A stretch of DNA of 64,000 nucleotides from Escherichia coli (GCF_044324875.1 NZ_CP172185.1); one strand, 5' to 3'. Positions 3,261 through 63,814 are shown, counted from the stretch's first letter. Numbers and translations: made by a program. The notes: a model not told the origin generated them from the letters alone.

Positions 3261-4384
3261 TGCGCCATTTACGCAATATTTTTAATCTGGGTATCAAAGA
3301 GTTGCGCAGTCTGCTCGGTGATAAAGCGATGCTGACATTGATTGTCTTCTCGTTTACGGTGTCGGTATATTCGTCAGCGACCGTCACGCCAGGATCATTG
3401 AACCTCGCGCCGATCGCCATTGCCGATATGGATCAATCGCAGTTATCGAATCGGATCGTTAACAGCTTCTATCGTCCGTGGTTTTTGCCACCGGAGATGA
3501 TCACCGCCGATGAGATGGATGCCGGACTGGACGCCGGACGCTATACCTTCGCGATAAATATTCCGCCTAATTTTCAGCGTGATGTCCTCGCCGGACGCCA
3601 GCCAGATATTCAGGTGAACGTCGATGCCACGCGCATGAGCCAGGCATTCACTGGCAACGGTTATATCCAGAATATTATCAACGGTGAAGTGAACAGCTTT
3701 GTCGCGCGCTACCGTGATAATAGCGAACCGTTGGTATCGCTGGAAACCCGGATGCGCTTCAACCCGAACCTCGATCCCGCGTGGTTTGGCGGGGTGATGG
3801 CGATCATCAACAACATTACCATGCTGGCGATTGTGTTGACCGGATCGGCACTGATCCGCGAGCGTGAACACGGCACGGTGGAACACTTACTGGTGATGCC
3901 GATAACGCCGTTTGAGATCATGATGGCGAAGGTCTGGTCGATGGGGCTGGTGGTGCTGGTGGTGTCGGGATTATCGCTGGTACTGATGGTGAAAGGCGTG
4001 CTGGGCGTACCGATTGAAGGCTCGATCCCGCTGTTTATGCTGGGCGTGGCGCTGAGTCTGTTTGCCACCACGTCAATCGGCATTTTCATGGGGACGATAG
4101 CGCGTTCGATGCCGCAACTGGGGCTGCTGGTGATTCTGGTGCTGCTGCCGCTACAAATGCTTTCCGGTGGATCCACGCCGCGCGAAAGTATGCCGCAGAT
4201 GGTGCAGGACATTATGCTGACCATGCCGACGACACACTTTGTTAGCCTCGCGCAGGCCATTCTCTACCGTGGTGCAGGATTCGAAATCGTCTGGCCGCAG
4301 TTCCTGACACTGATGGCAATTGGCGGCGCGTTTTTCACCATCGCACTGCTGAGATTCAGGAAGACAATTGGGACAATGGCGTAA
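3257..4384 (+). CDS. yhhJ: ABC-2 family transporter permease
   Basis: ATG at 3257 overlaps the rbbA stop (ATGA) and gives 375 aa starting MMRHLRNIF; the ORF-track start at 3176 would overlap rbbA by 85 bp and is probably an artefactual extension. Multi-pass hydrophobic C-terminus. Confidence 0.85.
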
Positions 4385-4394
4385 ATACAGTTGC

Positions 4395-4427
4395 CCGATG
4401 CGTAAGCTTATAGGGTCTACGCATCGG
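4395..4427. terminator. Perfect 10-bp inverted repeat (CCGATGCGTA / TACGCATCGG) between convergent yhhJ and the aldolase gene; candidate bidirectional terminator
   Basis: Inverted repeat read directly from the sequence, 11 bp after the yhhJ stop and followed by a T-rich tract (TACAATTTATTG). Confidence 0.4.
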
Positions 4428-4474
4428 TACAATTTATTGAATTGTAGTTGTTTTACGCCGCATCCGGCGAAGAT

Positions 4475-5326
4475 TTACTTAACCAACCGATGCCCCTCAT
4501 TCATCATCAGGATTTTGCTATACACATCTTCCTCGACGGCGTTTTTTGCTGATGCCATCACTCGTGCCAGATTCGCCTCGTTGTGATTATTCACATACGC
4601 TTTGCCGACGGCGGTGATAAACGCTTTGCGCAGATCGCTGGCGATATTTACTTTAGCGACGCGATAATTAACAAAGCTGCGTAATATTTCCGGGGCGATA
4701 CCGGAGCCGCCGTGAATAACCAGCGGCACCGGGCAGACTTCGGCAATGCGCTTCAGCAGGGGGATATCGATACGCGGTATATCGTCCAGGCCATGAACGT
4801 TGCCAATAGAAACTGCCAGCATGTCGCAACCGGTGCGCTCGACAAAGGTCTTCACCTTTTCCGGTTCCGTTTTGCAATCGGCTTCGCTGACGTGATCATC
4901 TTCTTTGCCGAGAATCGCCCCCAGCTCCGCTTCAACCGGTACGCCATAGGATTTACAGAAATCGACAGCTTCCTGGGTGAAAGCGATATTCTCTTCAAAA
5001 GATAATGCGGCACCGTCAATCATGACCGAGGTAAAGCCCGCGCGCACCGCCTGTTTAACATCCTCCTGAGTTTTCCCGTGATCCAGATGAAGACTGACCG
5101 GAACATCCATTTTATCGGCGTGACGTTTCACGATTTCATAAATGTAATCGTATCCCGAGAGTTGTGCATTGGTGGGCGCAATCTGAATGAAGTTGGGTAA
5201 TCCTGAACGCTCAATGGCGTTTAAAATTGAAATCGTCGTCTCCAGATTGGTGGTATTAAACGCGCCCGCTAATACCCGTTTTTCCTGAATGCGGTCGAGC
5301 AGTATCCGTCCATTAACTAATGGCAT
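4475..5326 (-). CDS. Class II ketose-bisphosphate aldolase (FbaA/GatY/KbaY family)
   Basis: 283-aa ORF with class II aldolase hallmarks: metal-binding His-containing motifs (LHLDHG, VIHGGSG) and an N-terminus typical of tagatose/fructose bisphosphate aldolases. Confidence 0.8.
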   Translation of the reverse strand: MPLVNGRILLDRIQEKRVLAGAFNTTNLETTISILNAIERSGLPNFIQIAPTNAQLSGYDYIYEIVKRHADKMDVPVSLHLDHGKTQEDVKQAVRAGFTSVMIDGAALSFEENIAFTQEAVDFCKSYGVPVEAELGAILGKEDDHVSEADCKTEPEKVKTFVERTGCDMLAVSIGNVHGLDDIPRIDIPLLKRIAEVCPVPLVIHGGSGIAPEILRSFVNYRVAKVNIASDLRKAFITAVGKAYVNNHNEANLARVMASAKNAVEEDVYSKILMMNEGHRLVK

Positions 5327-15594: not shown

Positions 15595-15631
15595 GGTAAC
15601 CCCAATGGATTAAAATAGATGGCGGAAATAA

Positions 15632-15659
15632 GTATGACGATTTTAAGTATTCGTCATAC
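15632..15659 (-). promoter_or_regulatory. NikR operator (GTATGA-N16-TCATAC) in the nikA promoter
   Basis: Exact match to the known NikR operator half-sites with 16-bp spacer, 38 bp upstream of the nikA start codon. Confidence 0.75.
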
Positions 15660-15704
15660 TGATTACCTGTTCTGGATCAATAGATGGGCAGTCGGGTGGG
15701 CGGA

Positions 15705-16292
15705 TCAGTTAACTGAATCGATCCATTGCACACTGTCGGCGGAGAGCGTAAAGGGGGTAGGGGTGCAGATCGCCAGGCTTAAATTTTCTAGCTGACAATG
15801 GCTGACTGACAGTGATGAGTGATAGGTGCTGTCTACGCTGACGATTTGCCAGGCGCTGCCGCCACGCTGTTTAACGATGGCTTCTTTGCGCGTCCAGATG
15901 CGCCAGAACATTTCCAGTTGCTGATCGGGATGCACGGCGTCCATCTCAGCGTGTTCCCCGAGGCTGAACACGGCGTTCGCCAGCCAGCGCCAGTTGGCGC
16001 GCGGGCGAATCACTTCGATATCGCAGCCGACTTCGCCTTCATCGCTCAACAGCAGGGCGATATCGTCACCGCTATGGCTTAAGTTGAACCATAGCGGCGT
16101 TTCCGGCGCGAATGCCGGTTTGCCTTGTTCGCCATAGATGATCTCCGGTAGCGGGGAAAGCGTGTGCGAAAGTAATGCACGCCCCGCCAGCCAGCGTTCG
16201 CGTCGTGGACCTTGCGGTGCTTGATCGCGTAAAGCCGGTGGCAGTGGAGCTGCGCTTAAGGTCGAAACTTTCCCCAGAACTATCCGATACAT
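15705..16292 (-). CDS. acpT: 4'-phosphopantetheinyl transferase AcpT
   Basis: 195-aa product starting MYRIVLGKVSTLS; its start lies 1 bp after the stop of the upstream ketosynthase gene, so it is the terminal gene of the cluster transcription unit. Confidence 0.85.
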   Translation of the reverse strand: MYRIVLGKVSTLSAAPLPPALRDQAPQGPRRERWLAGRALLSHTLSPLPEIIYGEQGKPAFAPETPLWFNLSHSGDDIALLLSDEGEVGCDIEVIRPRANWRWLANAVFSLGEHAEMDAVHPDQQLEMFWRIWTRKEAIVKQRGGSAWQIVSVDSTYHSSLSVSHCQLENLSLAICTPTPFTLSADSVQWIDSVN

Positions 16293-29805: not shown

Positions 29806-30873
29806 TTATTTCTTTTGGCATATCAAAAGTGTATGCCCAACGCCTAAATTATCGTGGCGCTCTGCTACCTGGAATCCTGCTTTATTCAGATAGTCGTAAA
29901 ATTTCTCTGCACTATAGAAACGGCTGTTACCGTTTGCCATGCAGGTAAAATAAAGTGAGGACGCGTTCAGGCTAAATGATGCTGCTTCAAACCGCTGCGC
30001 ATCCCAGAACAACTCCATGATGCAAACTTTTGCGCCAGGCTTCATTACGCTGGCGATTTTGCTGAGTATGCTAATTATTTGTTCGGGTGAAAAACAGTCT
30101 AAAAATTGGCTCATCCACCAGATATCAGCCTCGCCCGGTAATGGGGCATCGCTTAGCATATCCACCGCATGGAAATCTATGCGATCAGAAAAACCTGCAT
30201 TCGCGATATTTTCTTTCGCTAGTACGATTTGTTGTGGCAGATCTAATAACGTCACGGCGATGTTTTCATTGTATTTGCAGCAACGCAAAGCCCACTTACC
30301 CGTATTGCCGCCTACATCGTACAATGTTGTGGGGTTGTTGGCGAATACATAAGGCAGTGCGGCGTTAAATGCGCCATCTGAATAGTAATGATCAAACGCA
30401 AACCAGCTTTCACGAGCGGCGTCTGGTAATTGTGAAAGTGCCGGATATATCGTCGACCAGTCGCCAAATACTTTTAACCCGGACGGTTTTCCTTCATTGA
30501 GTGAATCGGCGAGGAAGAAGAGCCCCTGGTAACAGACATCCTGGGTGAAATCCATATTCACGCGAGTCATAGTGTCATGCAGGAGGTAATGACCGATTTT
30601 CGCCAGGTAATACATTCCCTCTTTACAGGTAATAATTCGCCCGCTTAAGCCCATATCTAACAGAACGCTGGCCGCATATTCGTTGATATGGCTATGTTCG
30701 GTGATATCAGCCAGCGTTGCGCCATGTTTGCCTTGCCGATCCAGATATGAAAGTACACCCGCATTACGTAGGCAGAGTGCTGTTTGAAAAAGCATAGGGG
30801 CAAAGGCAATGCGTTGAGCTTCGGTAATCGCATCCAGTGCGCTAAGAGAATCCTGTTCGTACATGTTGGGCAC
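29806..30873 (-). CDS. SAM-dependent O-methyltransferase (ApeB-like)
   Basis: 355 aa with a class I methyltransferase Rossmann motif (LYDVGGNTG). The ORF-track start is a GTG at 30873; the ATG at 30864 is an alternative. Confidence 0.75.
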   Translation of the reverse strand: MPNMYEQDSLSALDAITEAQRIAFAPMLFQTALCLRNAGVLSYLDRQGKHGATLADITEHSHINEYAASVLLDMGLSGRIITCKEGMYYLAKIGHYLLHDTMTRVNMDFTQDVCYQGLFFLADSLNEGKPSGLKVFGDWSTIYPALSQLPDAARESWFAFDHYYSDGAFNAALPYVFANNPTTLYDVGGNTGKWALRCCKYNENIAVTLLDLPQQIVLAKENIANAGFSDRIDFHAVDMLSDAPLPGEADIWWMSQFLDCFSPEQIISILSKIASVMKPGAKVCIMELFWDAQRFEAASFSLNASSLYFTCMANGNSRFYSAEKFYDYLNKAGFQVAERHDNLGVGHTLLICQKK

Positions 30874-30932
30874 AACCTGTTAAGAGGGAATTAAATTATT
30901 ATCGGACCGCAGCGGCCCGACTTTAGGAAGAA

Positions 30933-31322
30933 TTATAAATCTGCGCCCGCTGACAAATTCAGTTGAATATCTTTGTCGAGATTGCGGACCCAGCGATTGT
31001 AGTTTTTATGAATTTGTCCGCCTGACGCTTGTAGGTTCTGGCTATTTTCATAATTGATATCGTAGCTGGATGCCGTGTAGTTAATGCGAATTTCGGCTGA
31101 ATGATCGCGTGACTGTTGACGTGCTTTAATTACGCCTTGTCCGGCTTCGGACATAATCCATTTGCGTTCAACGCCAGCTTTCAGAATCGCTTTTTTCACT
31201 TGTTCCTGGGTATGACCAGCGCTGACGGTTGAGTGAACCTGATCAATTGGCGCAGTACGCGCGCAACCCGCTAAAGCACCCACAACAGCAATAGCCGCAA
31301 ACCATTTCATGTAATGTCTCAT
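30933..31322 (-). CDS. Small lipoprotein, first gene of the cluster (ApeA-position)
   Basis: 129-aa ORF with signal peptide and lipobox LAGC; AT-rich promoter-like region upstream. Confidence 0.6.
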   Translation of the reverse strand: MRHYMKWFAAIAVVGALAGCARTAPIDQVHSTVSAGHTQEQVKKAILKAGVERKWIMSEAGQGVIKARQQSRDHSAEIRINYTASSYDINYENSQNLQASGGQIHKNYNRWVRNLDKDIQLNLSAGADL

Positions 31323-31651
31323 TAGAACCCCATTAAAGTATTGTTTTTACGAGTAAAGCAAGATTTAACTGTAATTGCTGGCATCACTATTCTTTATTTA
31401 GCGAAAAAATTACTTGTGAGATAAGTCAGTAAGTGCACATCAGAGTAAAAATTTCTGAAATGACTAAATTACTGCCAGCGGGGACCAACTATAAGTGAGT
31501 GAGAAAAATGAGGCAATAAAAATAACACAATGTTATCAGTGCATTCTTTGAGAAGGATTTAATCGCTATTCGGCGTTTATATATATTTGACTTAAGGAAT
31601 GGTTTTTATAAATTAATTGTCTGAATAATGTTTCTTCATTTCCTCAAATCA

Positions 31652-31682
31652 AATGGCCACTGTTAGATAAACGGTGGCCATT
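31652..31682 (-). terminator. Hairpin (AATGGCCAC ... GTGGCCATT) 20 bp downstream of the yhhT stop; candidate intrinsic terminator
   Basis: 9-bp perfect inverted repeat with 13-nt loop read from the sequence, followed on the transcribed strand by a T-rich tract. Confidence 0.4.
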
Positions 31683-32068
31683 GCCTGCTCAGGAGGTGCT
31701 ATTAACCCGGTAATCGACTTTTCGGTCTGCCCGGTCCCAGTAAAATCGCCAGTTTGCTACCGCCTTTGGTGGTTTCCATCCAGATTTTACACACGCTGGT
31801 TAATGGTACCGAAAGTAGCATCCCTACCGGGCCGAGCAGCCATCCCCAAATTAACAATGAAAGAAATACCACCATGGTGGACATCCCCAGGCGATGGCCC
31901 ATCATCCGTGGTTCTAAAATATTGCCGATGACCATATGGACCACTAAAAACAATGCGCCGACCAGAATACATTCGTAAACGCCATTAAACAGCAGCACCT
32001 GAATCATTGGCGGGGTGATGCTGCCAACTTACTGATTTAGTGTATGATGGTGTTTTTGAGGTGCTCCA

Positions 32069-32344
32069 GTGGCTTCTGTTTCTATCAGCTGTCCCTCCTG
32101 TTCAGCTACTGACGGGGTGGTGCGTAACGGCAAAAGCACCGCCGGACATCAGCGCTATCTCTGCTCTCACTGCCGTAAAACATGGCAACTGCAGTTCACT
32201 TACACCGCTTCTCAACCCGGTACGCACCAGAAAATCATTGATATGGCCATGAATGGCGTTGGATGCCGGGCAACTGCCCGCATTATGGGCGTTGGCCTCA
32301 ACACGATTTTACGTCACTTAAAAAACTCAGGCCGCAGTCGGTAA
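32069..32344 (+). CDS. insA: IS1 InsA protein
   Basis: 91-aa ORF starting [32 protein letters not shown] (zinc-finger/HTH region of InsA). Confidence 0.95.
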
Positions 32345-32766
32345 CCTCGCGCATACAGCCGGGCAGTGACGTCATCGTCTGCGCGGAAATGGACGAACAG
32401 TGGGGCTATGTCGGGGCTAAATCGCGCCAGCGCTGGCTGTTTTACGCGTATGACAGGCTCCGGAAGACGGTTGTTGCGCACGTATTCGGTGAACGCACTA
32501 TGGCGACGCTGGGGCGTCTTATGAGCCTGCTGTCACCCTTTGACGTGGTGATATGGATGACGGATGGCTGGCCACTGTATGAATCCCGCCTGAAGGGAAA
32601 GCTGCACGTAATCAGCAAGCGATATACGCAGCGAATTGAGCGGCATAACCTGAATCTGAGGCAGCACCTGGCACGGCTGGGACGGAAGTCGCTGTCGTTC
32701 TCAAAATCGGTGGAGCTGCATGACAAAGTCATCGGGCATTATCTGAACATAAAACACTATCAATAA
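32263..32766 (+). CDS. insB: IS1 InsB reading frame (expressed as the InsAB' transposase by -1 frameshifting)
   Basis: 167-aa frame overlapping insA in the -1 frame, ending IKHYQ; standard IS1 organisation. Confidence 0.9.
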
Positions 32767-33647
32767 GTTGGAGTCATTACCCATTGGCGGTACGGCGGAA
32801 ATTACCGCGCCGATATTGGGCACGTAGTTGAGCAAAAACGCCAGTACTGCCCACATCAGCGCAAACTGTACGCCCATTAGCGCCAGCCCCAGCCAGACGA
32901 TTACGCCTGTCCATAAACTTAGCAGCGTCTTTAACGCCAGATAATGCGAAACACCTTTTAAGGCGCGGTGTAGTCCGGCGATGTGAATCTGTGGATTATT
33001 CAACGCAAAACGCATTTTGTAAGGGACGTGGCGCACTTCAAACAGCATGAAAACTACGGTCATCACCAGCAAAAGCACGCTCGCCATTGCCCCGGAAAGC
33101 CCGGTCATTAGCGCCGTGGTGAAGGTAACCACTTTTTCCGAGTCCATCCGCTGCAGCATTCGCTCCGGTGACATATGCAAATTAAGAAAAGGCAACATCT
33201 CCTGCAATTTAAAAAGTTTGCGCGTTAGCTCCTTATTAAACTTCGGCAGCATAGAGATAAATTCGTTAAACGATGCCGCCAGTACGCCAACCAGCGCGGT
33301 TAGTGCGATCAGCATCACCACCACCACAATCGTAATGGCAACGGGGCGTTGTACTCCCCGACGAATAAACCAGGTGACGAGCGGGTTGAGGACGATGGCA
33401 AAAAACAGCGCCAGTAACAGCTGCACAATGATATCTGCCGCTGCGTGAATTCCCGCGAGGATCACTACCAGCGAGGCCAGCTTGAGCAGAATGTGCATGC
33501 CCGTTTTATCGGGTTGAGGGGTTTCCATTGGGGCTTCCTTGTGACTTTTTGTATTAAGTGTAGCGGGAGTCACGCCAGCAATATTCTGATTCTTACTGCT
33601 GATTTTCACGTCAGCACGTGGTAAAAATGAAACACTGTTGTAAAAAT

Positions 33648-44357: not shown

Positions 44358-44601
44358 TAAAAGCGTGTTATACTCTTTCCCTGCAATGGGTTCCGTAGCA
44401 GGGAAAGAGACCCCGTTGTCTCTTCCCGGTATTTCATCTCTATGTCACATTTTGTGCGTAATTTATTCACAGCGTTGCATTGAACTTGTGGATAAAATCA
44501 CTGTCTGATAAAACAGTGAATGATAACCTCGTTGCTCTTAAGCTCTGGCACAGTTGTTGCTACCACTGAAGCGCCAGAAGATATCGATTGAGAGGATTTG
44601 A

Positions 44602-47030: not shown

Positions 47031-47414
47031 TTAACGCTTCTCCCAGCCGCCCTGTTGTGCCGTAAATCCCAGAGCCTGCATAAACGCTGTCATCACACCG
47101 CGATCTTCCACGCCAGCATCCGCCATCCACCAGCCTAAAACGCCAGGATTGGTACGCAAAACCTCTTCCAGCAGATATTGCCCCACACCGCGACGGCGGG
47201 TGACTTCCCGCACACGTAGAGAATCCAGTGCCCCCTCGGTGCCGCTTAAGGTTACCCGCACGGCCGCTAGGAGGCGCTCGTTAAAACGCGCGGCGTAGAT
47301 ACGGTGGTTATCGTCAACCTGTAAAGAGGAAGGGGAATACTCCGGCCAGATCTTTTGCAGGTCAATCCGGTCCTGGTCGCTAAAGTTTTCTAATCGAATG
47401 ATGGTCAGCTTCAT
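47031..47414 (-). CDS. panM: GNAT-fold PanD maturation factor PanM
   Basis: 127-aa GNAT-family protein at the conserved position between livJ and livK. Confidence 0.85.
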   Translation of the reverse strand: MKLTIIRLENFSDQDRIDLQKIWPEYSPSSLQVDDNHRIYAARFNERLLAAVRVTLSGTEGALDSLRVREVTRRRGVGQYLLEEVLRTNPGVLGWWMADAGVEDRGVMTAFMQALGFTAQQGGWEKR

Positions 47415-47837
47415 GGGTAACCCGTGTAAATCACAAAAGAGGAACCAGTGTAGCGAAATAATTTAATCGGAGGCTTTCTCTTTTTTATTTCTTTTGGCAG
47501 GTGATTAATTTTTTTTCAGCAATAATTACAAAGTTAAAACATTAGAGAATGAAAAATGTCCAGCATAATCCCCTGAATGGTAGTGAATTATTCTGCCCTT
47601 TGTTCCGTTATTTTATGCTGACAACGGTGCTTTTTTCTGTTTATCTATCAATTAATTCAGAATATTATCTGTTCTTAATCGACTGAAAAATAGGGATTTT
47701 AATCGCTATTATCACAAAATACTGCGCTAAACCCTTAATCAGACAGGTAAAAACAGCGCAGTATAAAAAAAGAACAGCCTGATTTGTTAACACATAAAAA
47801 CAAAGCAACACAACATTACGAGTGGGGATTTTTGACT

Positions 47838-48947
47838 ATGAAACGGAATGCGAAAACTATCATCGCAGGGATGATTGCACTGGCAATTTCACACACCGCT
47901 TTAGCCGACGATATTAAAGTTGCCGTTGTCGGCGCGATGTCCGGTCCGATTGCTCAGTGGGGCGATATGGAATTTAACGGCGCGCGTCAGGCCATTAAAG
48001 ACATTAATGCCAAAGGGGGAATTAAGGGCGATAAGCTGGTGGGCGTGGAATATGACGACGCCTGCGATCCGAAACAAGCCGTTGCGGTCGCCAACAAAAT
48101 CGTTAACGACGGCATTAAATACGTCATCGGCCATCTGTGTTCCTCCTCTACCCAGCCTGCTTCAGATATCTACGAAGACGAAGGTATTCTGATGATCTCG
48201 CCGGGAGCGACCAACCCGGAGCTGACCCAACGCGGTTATCAACACATCATGCGCACTGCCGGGCTGGACTCTTCCCAGGGGCCAACGGCGGCAAAATACA
48301 TTCTTGAGACGGTGAAGCCCCAGCGCATCGCGATCATTCACGACAAACAACAGTATGGTGAAGGGCTGGCGCGTTCGGTGCAGGACGGATTGAAAGCAGC
48401 CAATGCCAACGTCGTTTTCTTCGACGGTATTACCGCCGGGGAGAAAGATTTCTCCGCGCTGATCGCCCGCCTGAAAAAAGAAAACATCGACTTCGTTTAC
48501 TACGGCGGTTACTACCCGGAAATGGGGCAGATGCTGCGCCAGGCCCGTTCCGTTGGCCTGAAAACTCAGTTTATGGGGCCGGAAGGTGTGGGTAATGCGT
48601 CGTTGTCGAATATTGCTGGCGATGCTGCCGAAGGCATGTTGGTCACTATGCCAAAACGCTATGACCAGGATCCGGCAAACCAGGGCATTGTTGATGCGTT
48701 GAAAGCAGACAAGAAAGATCCGTCCGGGCCTTATGTCTGGATCACTTACGCGGCGGTGCAATCTCTGGCGACTGCCCTTGAGCGTACCGGCAGCGATGAG
48801 CCGCTGGCACTGGTGAAAGATTTAAAAGCTAACGGTGCGAACACCGTGATTGGGCCGCTGAACTGGGATGAAAAAGGCGATCTTAAGGGATTTGATTTTG
48901 GTGTCTTCCAGTGGCACGCCGACGGTTCATCCACGGCAGCCAAGTGA
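47838..48947 (+). CDS. livK: Leucine-specific periplasmic binding protein LivK
   Basis: 369-aa product starting [11 protein letters not shown], highly similar to LivJ; first gene of livKHMGF. Confidence 0.9.
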
Positions 48948-60353: not shown

Positions 60354-60638
60354 TCAGGGCAAGCCGAAGGTAGCCTTTTTTATTTCATAATCCTGTAGAT
60401 ATTCTTCCAGCGGCTTTGCCGTTCCAAGGGAATGAATTTCACCACTGTCTTTATCAATAATAAAAGGTGCGTTACCGGCTAAGCGCGCGGCCTCATCACC
60501 AGATTCAAGAAATTCTTGTGATTCGAAACAGAAATACCAGCCCTGGCTAAAACGTCCATGCAGAGTGATGACGACAGGGAGATCTGCATCATCAAGGTAA
60601 TGGTTCGCTTTCGCGAATGCGTCGTGATAAGTAATCAT
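60354..60638 (-). CDS. yrhB: Small protein YrhB
   Basis: 94-aa ORF starting MITYHDAFAKANHYLDD, recognised as the K-12 YrhB sequence. Confidence 0.8.
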   Translation of the reverse strand: MITYHDAFAKANHYLDDADLPVVITLHGRFSQGWYFCFESQEFLESGDEAARLAGNAPFIIDKDSGEIHSLGTAKPLEEYLQDYEIKKATFGLP

Positions 60639-61087
60639 AATTATAATAAATATTATTGTTGAACGTTATATTATTATTCTTGCGTTATACTTTGAGAAAA
60701 GGCGTGTTCATCTTCGTCAAAGATATTATTAAATGCTGGTTTTGAAAAAAGTTCATCGGATAATATACAGTCACGAAATAAGTATCTGCTAATATTTTGT
60801 GATTTCTTTTTCAGAACGTCGAACGGGATTTTCTTATTTAAGATATCAGAATCTTATGATTCGGGTGAAATTCTAACTAAATCAACATGTCACTAAAATC
60901 ATCATAGCCATTAGCTATTTCGGCTAAAATAGAGATTACATGTCTTCGGTCCATCTCACTTAAGGAGTGTAGTTCCGTTGTAAGTTTTTCCATAGCTTGC
61001 ATTGCTAAGTTTCGAACAAGGAATTTTCTGCTGGTAATCTCTAAAAAGATGGCATGGTTTACAATGATTTTTGTTATCTTTTGATTA

Positions 61088-61582
61088 TTATGAACAACTG
61101 TCCATGATTTCGTTTAAGAATGAAGAGAAATCACTAAACGAACTGAATATATTTTCGGTGCCAATATTATCTCTAATTTCAAAAAAGTTATTTTTAATGT
61201 CATAAGTAAATATTGAAATGCTATCATCCCCGATCACTAACCGTTCTTGTAGATCAGGGTTTATGAAATCATCATTATTTCTATAAAATTCATTTACGGT
61301 AAAAAGGTTTTTAACTGAAGGTTCTGGAATCGAGAGGCTAAATAATCGTAATCCATTAACTTCGAATCCATCCATTGCTCTTAAAAAAGTAAGATAATCA
61401 GGTTGATTCTTAAAAAGAATACTAACTTCATTACATAACTTCTCCAGGCAATTAGTTGAATTAGAATTAAATTCTATTTGGATTATACTTTCAATAAATG
61501 ATTCCTTGAGCGGTGCTTCAAATGGATAGTCTAAATCATTCATCATTTTTTTTAATTTATTTATTTGGGTTTTAGTCATCAT
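61088..61582 (-). CDS. Candidate immunity protein for the upstream Hcp-toxin (YrhA-like, apparently intact here)
   Basis: 164-aa ORF in a very AT-rich segment; its start overlaps the toxin stop by 4 bp (ATGA), the usual effector-immunity arrangement. Confidence 0.6.
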   Translation of the reverse strand: MMTKTQINKLKKMMNDLDYPFEAPLKESFIESIIQIEFNSNSTNCLEKLCNEVSILFKNQPDYLTFLRAMDGFEVNGLRLFSLSIPEPSVKNLFTVNEFYRNNDDFINPDLQERLVIGDDSISIFTYDIKNNFFEIRDNIGTENIFSSFSDFSSFLNEIMDSCS

Positions 61583-62757
61583 TTTGTGGGTTCCATAATA
61601 TTTTTCATGGGAGGATAAATTGAGCCAGATGGAATGGCCCAGGGAGTGATTTTGCTTTCACCTACTAATATTCCCTTAGCTATTCGTGATTGCATGTTAG
61701 TAAAAACTTTATGATATGGTTCGTTTTCGATTAATACTAAATTTTCGAAATCATTAGTACCACCATCATCTAGAGATAGTTTATGGTGAACATTATAATT
61801 TAGAGGAACATTGCCCTTTCTCATTCTTAAAAGGTCTTCGGCGTTGAATCTTCCAGATGCTTCGGAGGTTTTTGCAAGTTTGATAAGAAAATTTTTTCTT
61901 ACAGTTTTATTAAACTCCTTTCGTAAGTTAGCTAAGTCTTTTGAAGGTCTCTTAATGTATATTATTTCTATTATGTCTATACCATCAAGAAGTTTTTGTT
62001 GACCTCTAAGTTTGCCTAAATAACTATTTATTTCTGTATATGTATCAACATTAGAACGCTTTGTTAAAAGAATAGATGCTGTTGCTATCGCTATGCCCGC
62101 TGTTTTTTCATTTAGTATTTGATCATAGCCTTTTATTGCATCTCCACCCAGTTTTTCCGCAGTATCTCTGAATCCTTCAATGTTCCCATTGTATACGCCA
62201 CCAGCAGCAAGTAGCCTGCCAATAGCTTTGCTGTTTAACGTTTTGAAACGATTATTTGTTTGGTTTTTTGAATTTGGTAAAAACAAACGGTTATAATTTT
62301 CAGGGAGTGCCAAATAGCTGAACTCGGTATTTGCGATAAGATGTTGACAGAGGATAAATTCATAACTAACAGTTATTGTTTCTGTATCCAGTTGATTTTC
62401 AATGATCTGATGATGAATAGCCGATAAAAAAGCGCCTCTTAGTTGTATATAATAATACTTTTCCCATCTACCAAATCTATTGATTCTATAAAAGTCAAAT
62501 TCCATAAATAATTGCTCATTATTGTTAATGGAATTAATAAGTAATGGAGTGCTTTTATCAATTAATTTACAAAATGTCATACCCTGTAACTGTGAACCAA
62601 GTCCCGTATTAGTAATTCTATTTGCGAGTGAGAATGTAAATATTTCATCCTCATGCCCACTCTGCCAGCGATTACCTATAGATTCAGTAGTCCCACAACC
62701 TGCGGAGATGTTTCCTTGTTGTTCTCCCGTTACTGTCAGGTAAACAATATTACTCAT
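61579..62757 (-). CDS. yhhZ: Hcp-domain protein with a C-terminal HNH-like nuclease extension (Hcp-ET-type T6SS effector; YhhZ-like)
   Basis: N-terminal 160 aa resembles Hcp (VYLTVTGEQQGNISAGC ...); C-terminus carries an HNH-like motif (NYNVHHKLSLDDGGTNDFENLVLIENEPYH). Confidence 0.7.
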   Translation of the reverse strand: MSNIVYLTVTGEQQGNISAGCGTTESIGNRWQSGHEDEIFTFSLANRITNTGLGSQLQGMTFCKLIDKSTPLLINSINNNEQLFMEFDFYRINRFGRWEKYYYIQLRGAFLSAIHHQIIENQLDTETITVSYEFILCQHLIANTEFSYLALPENYNRLFLPNSKNQTNNRFKTLNSKAIGRLLAAGGVYNGNIEGFRDTAEKLGGDAIKGYDQILNEKTAGIAIATASILLTKRSNVDTYTEINSYLGKLRGQQKLLDGIDIIEIIYIKRPSKDLANLRKEFNKTVRKNFLIKLAKTSEASGRFNAEDLLRMRKGNVPLNYNVHHKLSLDDGGTNDFENLVLIENEPYHKVFTNMQSRIAKGILVGESKITPWAIPSGSIYPPMKNIMEPTK

Positions 62758-62992
62758 CCCTGAAAAGTCCTTTTATGGCATGCTATTTTATTAATGGCAC
62801 TATTATGCTTGTTAATTGTTATTTATTTACTCTAGGAAATTGTAGGCGTATATATTAATAATAAAATATTACACTTTAGGACGTAATTATGAGGTAAATC
62901 TCAATATATTTATTGGGCAAATAAATACATTAAAGGAAGATATGCCGATTTTGAATGACGCCCTTTTTCCATCTCAGAAAAAGGGCACTATC

Positions 62993-63481
62993 TTACTTCA
63001 CCCGTGCCATATAATACGCATCGACATATTCACCATTACGTAATGCGTACTTTTTGCCAGTCCCTTCAATCTCAAAGCCGAATTTTTTATAGACCTTAAT
63101 TGCTGGCGCGTTATCGACGAACACCGTTAGCTCAATACGATCTACCCGCAACCAGTTGTCGCACATTTCAATCATCTCTCGCATCAGGGCGCTGGCGACG
63201 CCGTGATTCTTCCAGCGGGCGTCGACACAGATACCAAAATCGGCAACATGACTGCGGCGCGGGCGTTGTTGCACGTCAATGGTGAGATGTCCTACGACGA
63301 TTCCATCAATACAGGCGACTAACTGCTTGATGCCGGGACGATCGGCGAGTCGCTCCTGCCACATATGATCGGAAGGATGAGGCACCTGTAGTGTGTTGCA
63401 ATACACCTCCGGCTGGGCGTGAATCTGCCTGATGGCCTCGTAATCGCGCGTTTCAGCATGGCGTATCACTATCTCACTCAT
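62993..63481 (-). CDS. yhhY: GNAT-family N-acetyltransferase
   Basis: 162-aa product starting MSEIVIRHAE with the acetyl-CoA binding motif (HGVASALMREMIEM). Confidence 0.85.
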   Translation of the reverse strand: MSEIVIRHAETRDYEAIRQIHAQPEVYCNTLQVPHPSDHMWQERLADRPGIKQLVACIDGIVVGHLTIDVQQRPRRSHVADFGICVDARWKNHGVASALMREMIEMCDNWLRVDRIELTVFVDNAPAIKVYKKFGFEIEGTGKKYALRNGEYVDAYYMARVK

Positions 63482-63814
63482 TCCTTTGTCCTCTTTGGGG
63501 TAAATGTCCCTTTCAACATCATTGACTTTCAAATGCGAGTCAAATGCATTTTTTTGCAAAAAGTGTTGGACAAGTGCGAATGAGAATGATTATTATTGTC
63601 TCGCGATCAGGAAGACCCTCGCGGAGAACCTGAAAGCACGACATTGCTCACATTGCTTCCAGTATTACTTAGCCAGCCGGGTGCTGGCTTTTTTTTTGAT
63701 CTTTCGTTTTCAATTTATCCACGGGAAGTGCTTGTGTTCGTTATGCGCACTCCAGTAGGAACCACGTCCGCTTTGCGCTAAGGTATAAATAACCACCTTA
63801 AAAAGGACGAAATC

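Follow-up and report, generated by a model that had tools for sequence, protein, structure and literature searches.

The 379-bp spacer that separates yhhT from apeA, the first gene of an aryl-polyene (APE) cluster in Escherichia coli, probably combines a terminator of yhhT with a sigma-70 promoter for an operon that would run from apeA through apeR to acpT behind a leader of about 159 nt. The G+C-rich stem-loop at 31682–31652 and the U-rich stretch that follows it would end yhhT transcripts, and thereby shield the cluster from transcription that comes from upstream. A very AT-rich stretch of about 135 bp would then lead to TTGCCT (31516–31511) and, 17 nt further on, TATAGT (31493–31488), from where the long operon would be started near 31481, giving a leader with two conserved blocks and a GGGG ribosome-binding site ahead of the ATG at 31322. 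We infer termination, initiation, the exact start site and any regulator, including H-NS, from sequence features and their conservation. All coordinates refer to the window, i.e., the whole 64-kb stretch of E. coli DNA that was analysed (NZ_CP172185.1), and the features are read on the minus strand unless stated otherwise. The sequence-only reading of this region had placed both the yhhT terminator and the cluster promoter in the spacer, and as a prediction this placement is borne out for both elements, which are invariant or nearly so in 569 E. coli genomes, with promoter hexamers and spacing that are conserved across genera.

Organization of the yhhT–apeA region

The spacer is bounded by two co-oriented genes, with the TAA stop codon of yhhT at 31702–31704 and the ATG of apeA at 31322–31320 (Table 1). 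Its G+C content is 33.8%, as compared with 45–51% in the flanks, which places it within the lowest 3.1% of all 379-bp windows across the 64 kb, and the AT content is well above the genome average. These values agree with the earlier description of an AT-rich spacer of roughly 380 bp between the first cluster gene and the end of yhhT. The same description mentioned multiple A/T tracts, and six runs of at least four A or T are indeed present, but composition predicts 5.9 ± 2.2 such runs, and the tracts therefore add nothing beyond the AT-richness as such. Elsewhere in the window, 379-bp stretches with a G+C content of 36% or less are confined to 47314–47922 and 60431–63181, with a minimum of 28% near 61188. 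Both the spacer and its hairpin are single copy in every genome that carries the cluster, which rules out a repeated or mobile element.

Table 1. Features of the yhhT–apeA region, in the order in which they would be transcribed
Feature	Coordinates	Strand	Description or basis
yhhT 3′ fragment (AI-2E family transporter)	31702–32012	minus	ORF list, RefSeq annotation of identical 118UI DNA, IS1 end sequences
yhhT–apeA spacer	31323–31701	minus	379 bp, non-coding
Stem-loop, predicted intrinsic terminator of yhhT	31652–31682	minus	AAUGGCCACCGUU-UAUCU-AACAGUGGCCAUU; begins 20 nt past the stop codon
Interrupted U-rich tail	31641–31651	minus	UGAUUUGAGGA; reads CCAUUUGAUUUG with the last stem bases
Very AT-rich stretch from terminator to promoter	31517–31640	minus	alignment of spacers
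Predicted −35 hexamer	31511–31516	minus	TTGCCT; TTG invariant in 10 aligned orthologs; pairwise identity 0.79
Predicted −10 hexamer	31488–31493	minus	TATAGT; 17 nt past the −35; pairwise identity 0.77
Predicted transcription start	31479–31483 (near 31481)	minus	about 7 nt past the −10; from sigma-70 geometry
Predicted 5′ leader	31323–31481	minus	about 159 nt; follows from the promoter position
Leader block c	31391–31410	minus	ATTTTTTCGCTAAATAAAGA (orthologs AATTTAGCTTAAATAAAAT); pairwise identity 0.70
Leader block d	31338–31354	minus	ACTCGTAAAAACAATAC (orthologs ACACGTATAAACAGTAC); pairwise identity 0.68
Shine-Dalgarno sequence	31328–31331	minus	GGGG (orthologs GGGAG); 5 nt before the ATG; conserved
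apeA	30933–31322	minus	129-aa lipoprotein, lipobox LAGC; first gene of the APE/O-island 138 cluster

The cluster that opens with apeA extends down to approximately 16294, where acpT (15705–16292) is the next gene. DNA that is identical over 601 bp is found in E. coli 118UI, and in the annotation of that genome the lipoprotein gene is the first of an 18-gene cluster. The cluster encodes the lipoprotein, a methyltransferase, a ketosynthase chain-length factor, an acyltransferase, two acyl carrier proteins, an adenylating enzyme, dehydratases, a glycosyltransferase, a thioesterase, a LolA-like protein, an MMPL transporter, a DUF3261 protein, ketosynthases and a reductase. The last cluster gene of 118UI has its stop codon one base from the start of acpT, after which nikA–E follow. 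The gene order is that of apeA–R as given by Johnston et al. 2021 (PMC8253772), and the position of the cluster is that of O-island 138 of O157:H7. The G+C content of the cluster genes, 45–58%, is normal for E. coli.

In RefSeq, apeA starts at the equivalent of position 31310, 12 nt downstream of 31322, and encodes 125 residues. Met1 of the longer form is invariant in 15 homologs from at least 10 genera, typically with a length of 129 residues, and the second ATG is replaced by a codon for Ile, Val, Ala or Gly in other homologs and by ATA in the E. coli paralog. Because the first methionine is invariant and the second is not kept, we assign the start to 31322, which favours the 129-residue form over the RefSeq call and makes 31323 the correct boundary of the spacer, as had been proposed. 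The Shine-Dalgarno sequence and start codon together have a pairwise identity of 0.78 in the aligned orthologs (pairwise identities, here and below, were computed on seven non-redundant spacer sequences).

A predicted terminator downstream of yhhT

A strong hairpin had already been reported at 31652–31682, and its position proves to be exact. The two 13-nt arms are 92% complementary and form 12 pairs with a single C·A mismatch around a 5-nt loop, and the calculated folding energy as minus-strand RNA is −15.7 kcal/mol. The 76 nt around the hairpin fold with a z-score of −3.1 relative to shuffled sequences, and hairpins of such quality occur three times in the 64 kb, as against about 0.1 times per shuffle. 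The minus-strand sequence 3′ of the hairpin is UGAUUUGAGG, and with the last stem bases counted the tail becomes UUUGAUUUG, i.e., a U-tract interrupted by G and A, with four T in the nine nucleotides past the stem. A simple terminator scan, which demands a loop of at most 8 nt between perfect stems, made no call at this site, where the tail is too interrupted. Since the U-tract is interrupted and was missed by the scan, termination may be partial, with read-through as a possible outcome. On the plus strand the bases beyond the hairpin are GCCUGCUC, so that a terminator-like tail exists only on the yhhT strand.

Within E. coli, 568 of the 569 complete genomes that have the spacer share an identical 39-mer at the hairpin, and as none of the 569 has a second copy it is not a REP-type repeat. 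Escherichia sp. E1V33, with 91% identity in the spacer, differs at two positions of the hairpin. Both differences preserve the stem, one converting a C–G pair to U–G and the other the C·A mismatch to C–G, and the resulting folding energy is −19.2 kcal/mol. The U–G wobble can pair only in minus-strand RNA. In other genera, the sequence past the yhhT stop codon is unrelated to the E. coli hairpin, but most of the 26 orthologous spacers from these genera still have a hairpin and a T-run directly past the stop (the ortholog scan took in all stem lengths). The typical form is CTACC-(5–8 nt)-GGTAG-TTTT within the first 25 nt, with a stem that does not vary and a loop that does, and A and T tracts extend some of the hairpins. 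Escherichia has lost this CTACC-loop-GGTAG hairpin. In Leclercia, Enterobacter asburiae, Kosakonia and Lelliottia, a second and stronger hairpin with a T-run is aligned with the E. coli hairpin. Conservation of structure under changing sequence is a behaviour that terminators show, and the terminator reading is favoured for that reason. Taken together, the position, the tail, the wobble change and the orthologs lead us to predict that the hairpin is a terminator rather than an operator. Another hairpin in the window, at 44374–44408 (CTCTTTCCCTGC-N11-GCAGGGAAAGAG), is located between a 361-aa ORF (probably ftsX), whose stop codon it directly follows, and a downstream 284-aa ORF (probably rpoH), and has no obvious T-run.

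A predicted sigma-70 promoter upstream of apeA

The reference hexamers of sigma-70 promoters are TTGACA and TATAAT, spaced 16–18 nt apart. In a consensus scan of the spacer, TTGCCT-17-TATAGT (31516–31488) was the only minus-strand site, with agreement at 9 of 12 consensus positions; the −35 hexamer is weak, and the predicted start falls on C rather than on a purine. The −10 hexamer corresponds to approximately 4,419,997–4,420,002 in EDL933. When orthologous spacers were scanned independently of any alignment, this promoter was the top-scoring site in the window and in nine orthologs, at 165–210 nt before the ATG. In one ortholog genome an insertion displaces it to 300 nt before the ATG, and this copy was also found independently by a profile search.

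An alignment of ten spacers yields the motif (A/T-rich)-TTG(A/C)(T/C)N-17 nt-TATA(C/G)T, and no aligned sequence departs from the TTG of the −35, the TA of the −10 or the 17-nt spacing; the −10 of Superficieibacter is TACGAT. Across Citrobacter, Klebsiella and Superficieibacter, hexamers and spacing are preserved and the sequence in between diverges, with a pairwise identity of 0.38 for the 17 intervening nucleotides and 0.43 for the spacer as a whole. Immediately upstream, an A/T run (31517–31530, pairwise identity 0.54) abuts the −35 and is possibly UP-element-like. The segment 31531–31651 is poorly conserved (0.29), and within it AAATATATATAAAC (31575–31588) appears partly conserved by eye in the alignment. 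The contrast is equally clear within E. coli, where the promoter 39-mer 31484–31522 is identical in all 569 genomes and a control 39-mer from the leader (31430–31468) in only 160 of them. Between 31481 and 31527, no polymorphism was seen among seven diverse E. coli and E1V33.

About 16 of the 27 yhhT-linked orthologs have no recognisable promoter block and carry different candidate sites instead. Other clades have conserved −35/−10 pairs of their own at 117–178 nt before the ATG, namely TTGCAG-17-TATCAT, and TTGCCA-16-CATAAT or TAAATT. An nhmmer profile of the promoter-to-ATG region, searched against 68 apeA loci, retrieved the training sequences and the promoter block of C. amalonaticus S646, and elsewhere among these loci recovered only the Shine-Dalgarno/start region.

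In stationary phase, an rpoS mutant expresses the genes of O-island 138 at levels raised 2–6 fold (PMC2907692), an indirect observation that fits sigma competition at a sigma-70 promoter. In the literature searched, regulation of the yhhT-linked cluster is covered by expression changes only, i.e., by this RpoS effect, and we found no description there of a promoter or terminator in the yhhT–apeA spacer. A plus-strand candidate, TTGACT-16-TAAATT (31587–31614), was rejected since the hairpin has no T-tail past it on the plus strand and the site falls in the poorly conserved segment 31531–31651.

The apeA leader

In most aligned orthologs the leader has a length of 176–204 nt, and blocks c and d are shared by Escherichia, Citrobacter, Klebsiella and Superficieibacter. 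A conserved fold was not detected by RNAalifold on eight and seven orthologs, where the energies were −1.4 and −6.4 kcal/mol, respectively, and covariation was negligible. The only recurring pairing is a chance-level 4-bp contact between an early CC-rich motif and the Shine-Dalgarno sequence, and the single-sequence folding z-score of the leader is −0.75. Rfam gave no match at E ≤ 1 in 30500–32500, and none in the spacer at gathering score when the whole window was searched. The small RNA RyhB is located at 63632–63696 (Rfam RF00057, 83 bits).

On its reverse strand, block d resembles the IHF consensus in some orthologs, with zero or one mismatch in K. indica, Citrobacter MGH106 and K. michiganensis and two in the window (read by eye), and an IHF site in this block was rejected because the matches are inconsistent across orthologs. 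The same applies to CRP. The consensus TGTGAAATAGATCACA is perfect at about +90 in the leader of Citrobacter sp. MGH106, which is the only such ortholog, and the window has the CRP-like sequence ACTGACTTATCTCACA (31430–31415, 8/10 match, centred at about +58), which is not a consistent pattern. An upstream ORF of 21 codons (31387–31322), with a stop codon that overlaps the apeA ATG, was discarded because its own ATG is lost in E1V33 (ATA) and PCN033 (ATT) and because the frame is not kept in Citrobacter. Other small upstream ORFs begin inside or upstream of the promoter, or are on the plus strand.

Given that neither a conserved fold, an Rfam match, a conserved upstream ORF nor a consistent site for CRP or IHF was found, the most likely role of blocks c and d is the binding of regulators. 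It is also conceivable, although we regard it as rather doubtful, that the leader is not a passive 5′ UTR and that the two blocks constitute a control element targeted by a small RNA or by a DNA- or RNA-binding protein such as IHF. IHF affects APE production in Frischella (PMC10104596). If such a leader element exists, it would couple aryl-polyene synthesis to oxidative or envelope stress.

Age of the yhhT–apeA arrangement

The sequence-only reading regarded the spacer as typical of a horizontally acquired promoter region that may be subject to H-NS-type silencing. Horizontal acquisition is not supported, in view of the presence of the junction in 27 species representatives, a divergence that follows that of yhhT, and a scar in K-12. 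A scan over one genome per species returned 68 apeA loci, and 27 of these have yhhT immediately upstream on the same strand. They belong to Escherichia sp., about ten Citrobacter, Klebsiella indica, K. michiganensis, Lelliottia, Leclercia, Enterobacter, Huaxiibacter, Kosakonia, Pluralibacter, Superficieibacter and others. The syntenic spacers are 265–696 bp long and have 30–43% G+C, as compared with 47–60% in the flanking genes, and among the orthologs only the Escherichia sp. spacer has BLAST similarity to that of the window. With respect to E1V33, the window is 93.6% identical in yhhT, 91.0% in the spacer, 95.4% in apeA and 94.9% in apeB, and the corresponding values for EDL933 are 97.7, 98.2, 99.0 and 99.2%. 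These parallel identities show that the cluster has diverged together with its core neighbour yhhT.

In K-12, homology to the window ends at the yhhT stop codon, and the whole spacer is absent together with the hairpin. The 54-bp spacer between yhhT and acpT in K-12 (extracted locus 2943–2996) ends with the last 20 nt of apeR (window 16312–16293), a remnant which, judging from this match, is a deletion scar; the other 34 nt have no match in the window. Deletion of the cluster accounts for the state of K-12-like strains, which are without the hairpin and in which yhhT abuts acpT. The title of a 2006 paper by De Lay and Cronan on the orphan AcpT of K-12 (cited in PMC8253772) is in line with such a deletion. 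The cluster is present in 569 of 5426 complete E. coli genomes, and neither the ORF list nor the RefSeq annotation has an integrase or tRNA at the yhhT–apeA junction. Because of the synteny, the parallel divergence and the K-12 scar, the AT-richness is best seen as a long-standing property of the spacer and not as the mark of a recent import, and differential loss would explain the patchy presence in E. coli better than recent gain. The high-affinity H-NS motif, TCGATAAATT, has two 8/10 matches in the spacer and none better, and the literature searched yielded no H-NS binding data for the locus. Binding of H-NS to a spacer as AT-rich as this is plausible, and would be compatible with the terminator-plus-promoter reading.

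Alternative explanations

Transcription of the cluster could originate mainly elsewhere, either as read-through from the yhhT promoter past a leaky hairpin or from a second promoter, closer to apeA, within blocks c and d, in which case TTGCCT-17-TATAGT would be minor or silent. The interrupted U-tract is in line with this, as is the co-orientation of yhhT and apeA in 27 of 27 syntenic genomes, and the two blocks are AT-rich, contain −10-like strings and are as conserved as the hexamers. However, no properly spaced −35/−10 pair falls on the blocks in the window or in the orthologs, and the combination of kept hexamers with a free intervening spacer is specific to the upstream site. Terminator-like hairpins past yhhT across genera and the disruption of yhhT by IS1 in the window strain further make this explanation an unlikely one. 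Considering instead the hairpin, an inverted repeat is not by itself proof of a terminator, because a comparable palindrome at 15628–15663 (AGTATGACGA-N10-TCGTCATACT), located between acpT and nikA, appears to be a NikR operator; it contains GTATGA-N16-TCATAC, presumably the NikR operator of the nik promoter. The repeat at 31652–31682, as a near-perfect 13-nt palindrome that is invariant in E. coli (568/569), might similarly be an operator to which a dimeric regulator of the cluster binds, or else mark where a small RNA from the yhhT 3′ UTR ends. Both roles are improbable for an element that is positioned directly past a stop codon and about 135 bp upstream of the −35, with a G+C-rich core and a U-rich tail on the coding strand only. 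Moreover, the C-to-T change in E1V33 breaks the symmetry of the DNA but keeps the RNA pairing, orthologs with unrelated sequences still form a hairpin with a T-run at this place, and the repeat has neither a second copy in any of the 569 genomes nor an Rfam match.

A different proposal is that the spacer is foreign AT-rich DNA of recent acquisition that acts mainly in H-NS nucleation and silencing of the island, for which the low G+C content (33.8% over 379 bp) and the restricted distribution of the cluster (569/5426 E. coli genomes) can be put forward. The paralogous APE cluster of CFT073 has higher expression at 37 than at 23 °C (PMC12890032). Such a temperature response is common among H-NS targets. 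Against the proposal are the synteny and the AT-rich spacer in all 27 species representatives, the divergence in parallel with yhhT, the K-12 deletion scar, and a G+C content of the cluster genes that is normal for E. coli. In addition, A/T tracts are not enriched beyond composition, the best H-NS motif match is 8/10, and no H-NS data for the locus were found in the literature searched, which makes an island-silencing element of recent origin highly improbable.

Comparison with other APE clusters and regulatory elements

The APE cluster of CFT073 (apeA–R, c1186–c1204; Cimermancic 2014; Johnston 2021, PMC8253772) has the same gene order as the yhhT-linked cluster and about 85% nucleotide identity to it in apeA and apeB. 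Experimental work has been done on the cluster in CFT073 and NC101, which is a paralogous copy at another locus, where it adjoins cdiBA and is divergent from cdiB–cdiA (NC101 extracted locus 4124–5028). Paralogous clusters of the CFT073 type occur in about 254 genomes. The region upstream of this copy (515 bp) is also AT-rich, but is not homologous to the spacer and has other candidate promoters. Homology between the two was rejected since they share only the start-codon region and one 10-mer, TTGGTCCCTG. In NC101 this 10-mer is found just past a −10-like sequence; the O157 allele matches it exactly, and the window has C at position 9. Because the CFT073 cluster is a paralog with a non-homologous upstream region, published statements on its "native promoter(s)" do not transfer to the cluster described here. 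Regulation of the CFT073 paralog has been described in terms of oxidative stress, temperature and TosR. O-island 138 of O157:H7, on the other hand, occupies the same locus, where the spacer of the window has 98.2% identity to its counterpart in EDL933 and other O157 strains.

The predicted terminator agrees with Rho-independent terminators of enterobacterial genes in having a G+C-rich stem-loop 20 nt past the stop codon, a U-rich tail on the coding strand only, and a structure that is kept while the sequence changes between genera; it differs in the interrupted U-tract and the C·A mismatch in the stem. Similarly, the predicted promoter resembles sigma-70 promoters with long leaders in front of biosynthetic operons with respect to the 17-nt spacer, the A/T-rich upstream sequence, the leader of about 160–200 nt and the conserved Shine-Dalgarno sequence. 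The differences are a weak −35, a start derived from geometry, and a leader with conserved blocks but without a detectable conserved fold.

The region is an ordinary regulatory spacer, an unmapped example of well-known kinds of elements. The analysis gives a concrete position for the predicted native promoter and the predicted upstream insulator of the yhhT-linked aryl-polyene cluster, and places the apeA start codon 12 nt further upstream than RefSeq does. For the "island", an old enterobacterial arrangement with loss from most E. coli is a better reading than recent acquisition. Neither the revised apeA start nor the revised age of the island alters the general understanding of such regions.

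IS1 insertions around the spacer

An IS1 element is inserted in yhhT at 32013–32780, flanked by a 9-bp duplication, CATTGGCGG, at 32004–32012 and 32781–32789. As the element splits the gene, yhhT is a pseudogene in the window strain. The exact IS1–yhhT junction of the window was found in no complete E. coli genome of the collection. Independent IS1 insertions are present between the hairpin and the yhhT stop codon in strain 23CRST031 (extracted locus 1881–2667), between apeA and apeB in Eco_23-3511, and near or in yhhT in EC14 and 19AR0656. From the distribution of these copies, the surroundings of the spacer look like a local target of IS1.
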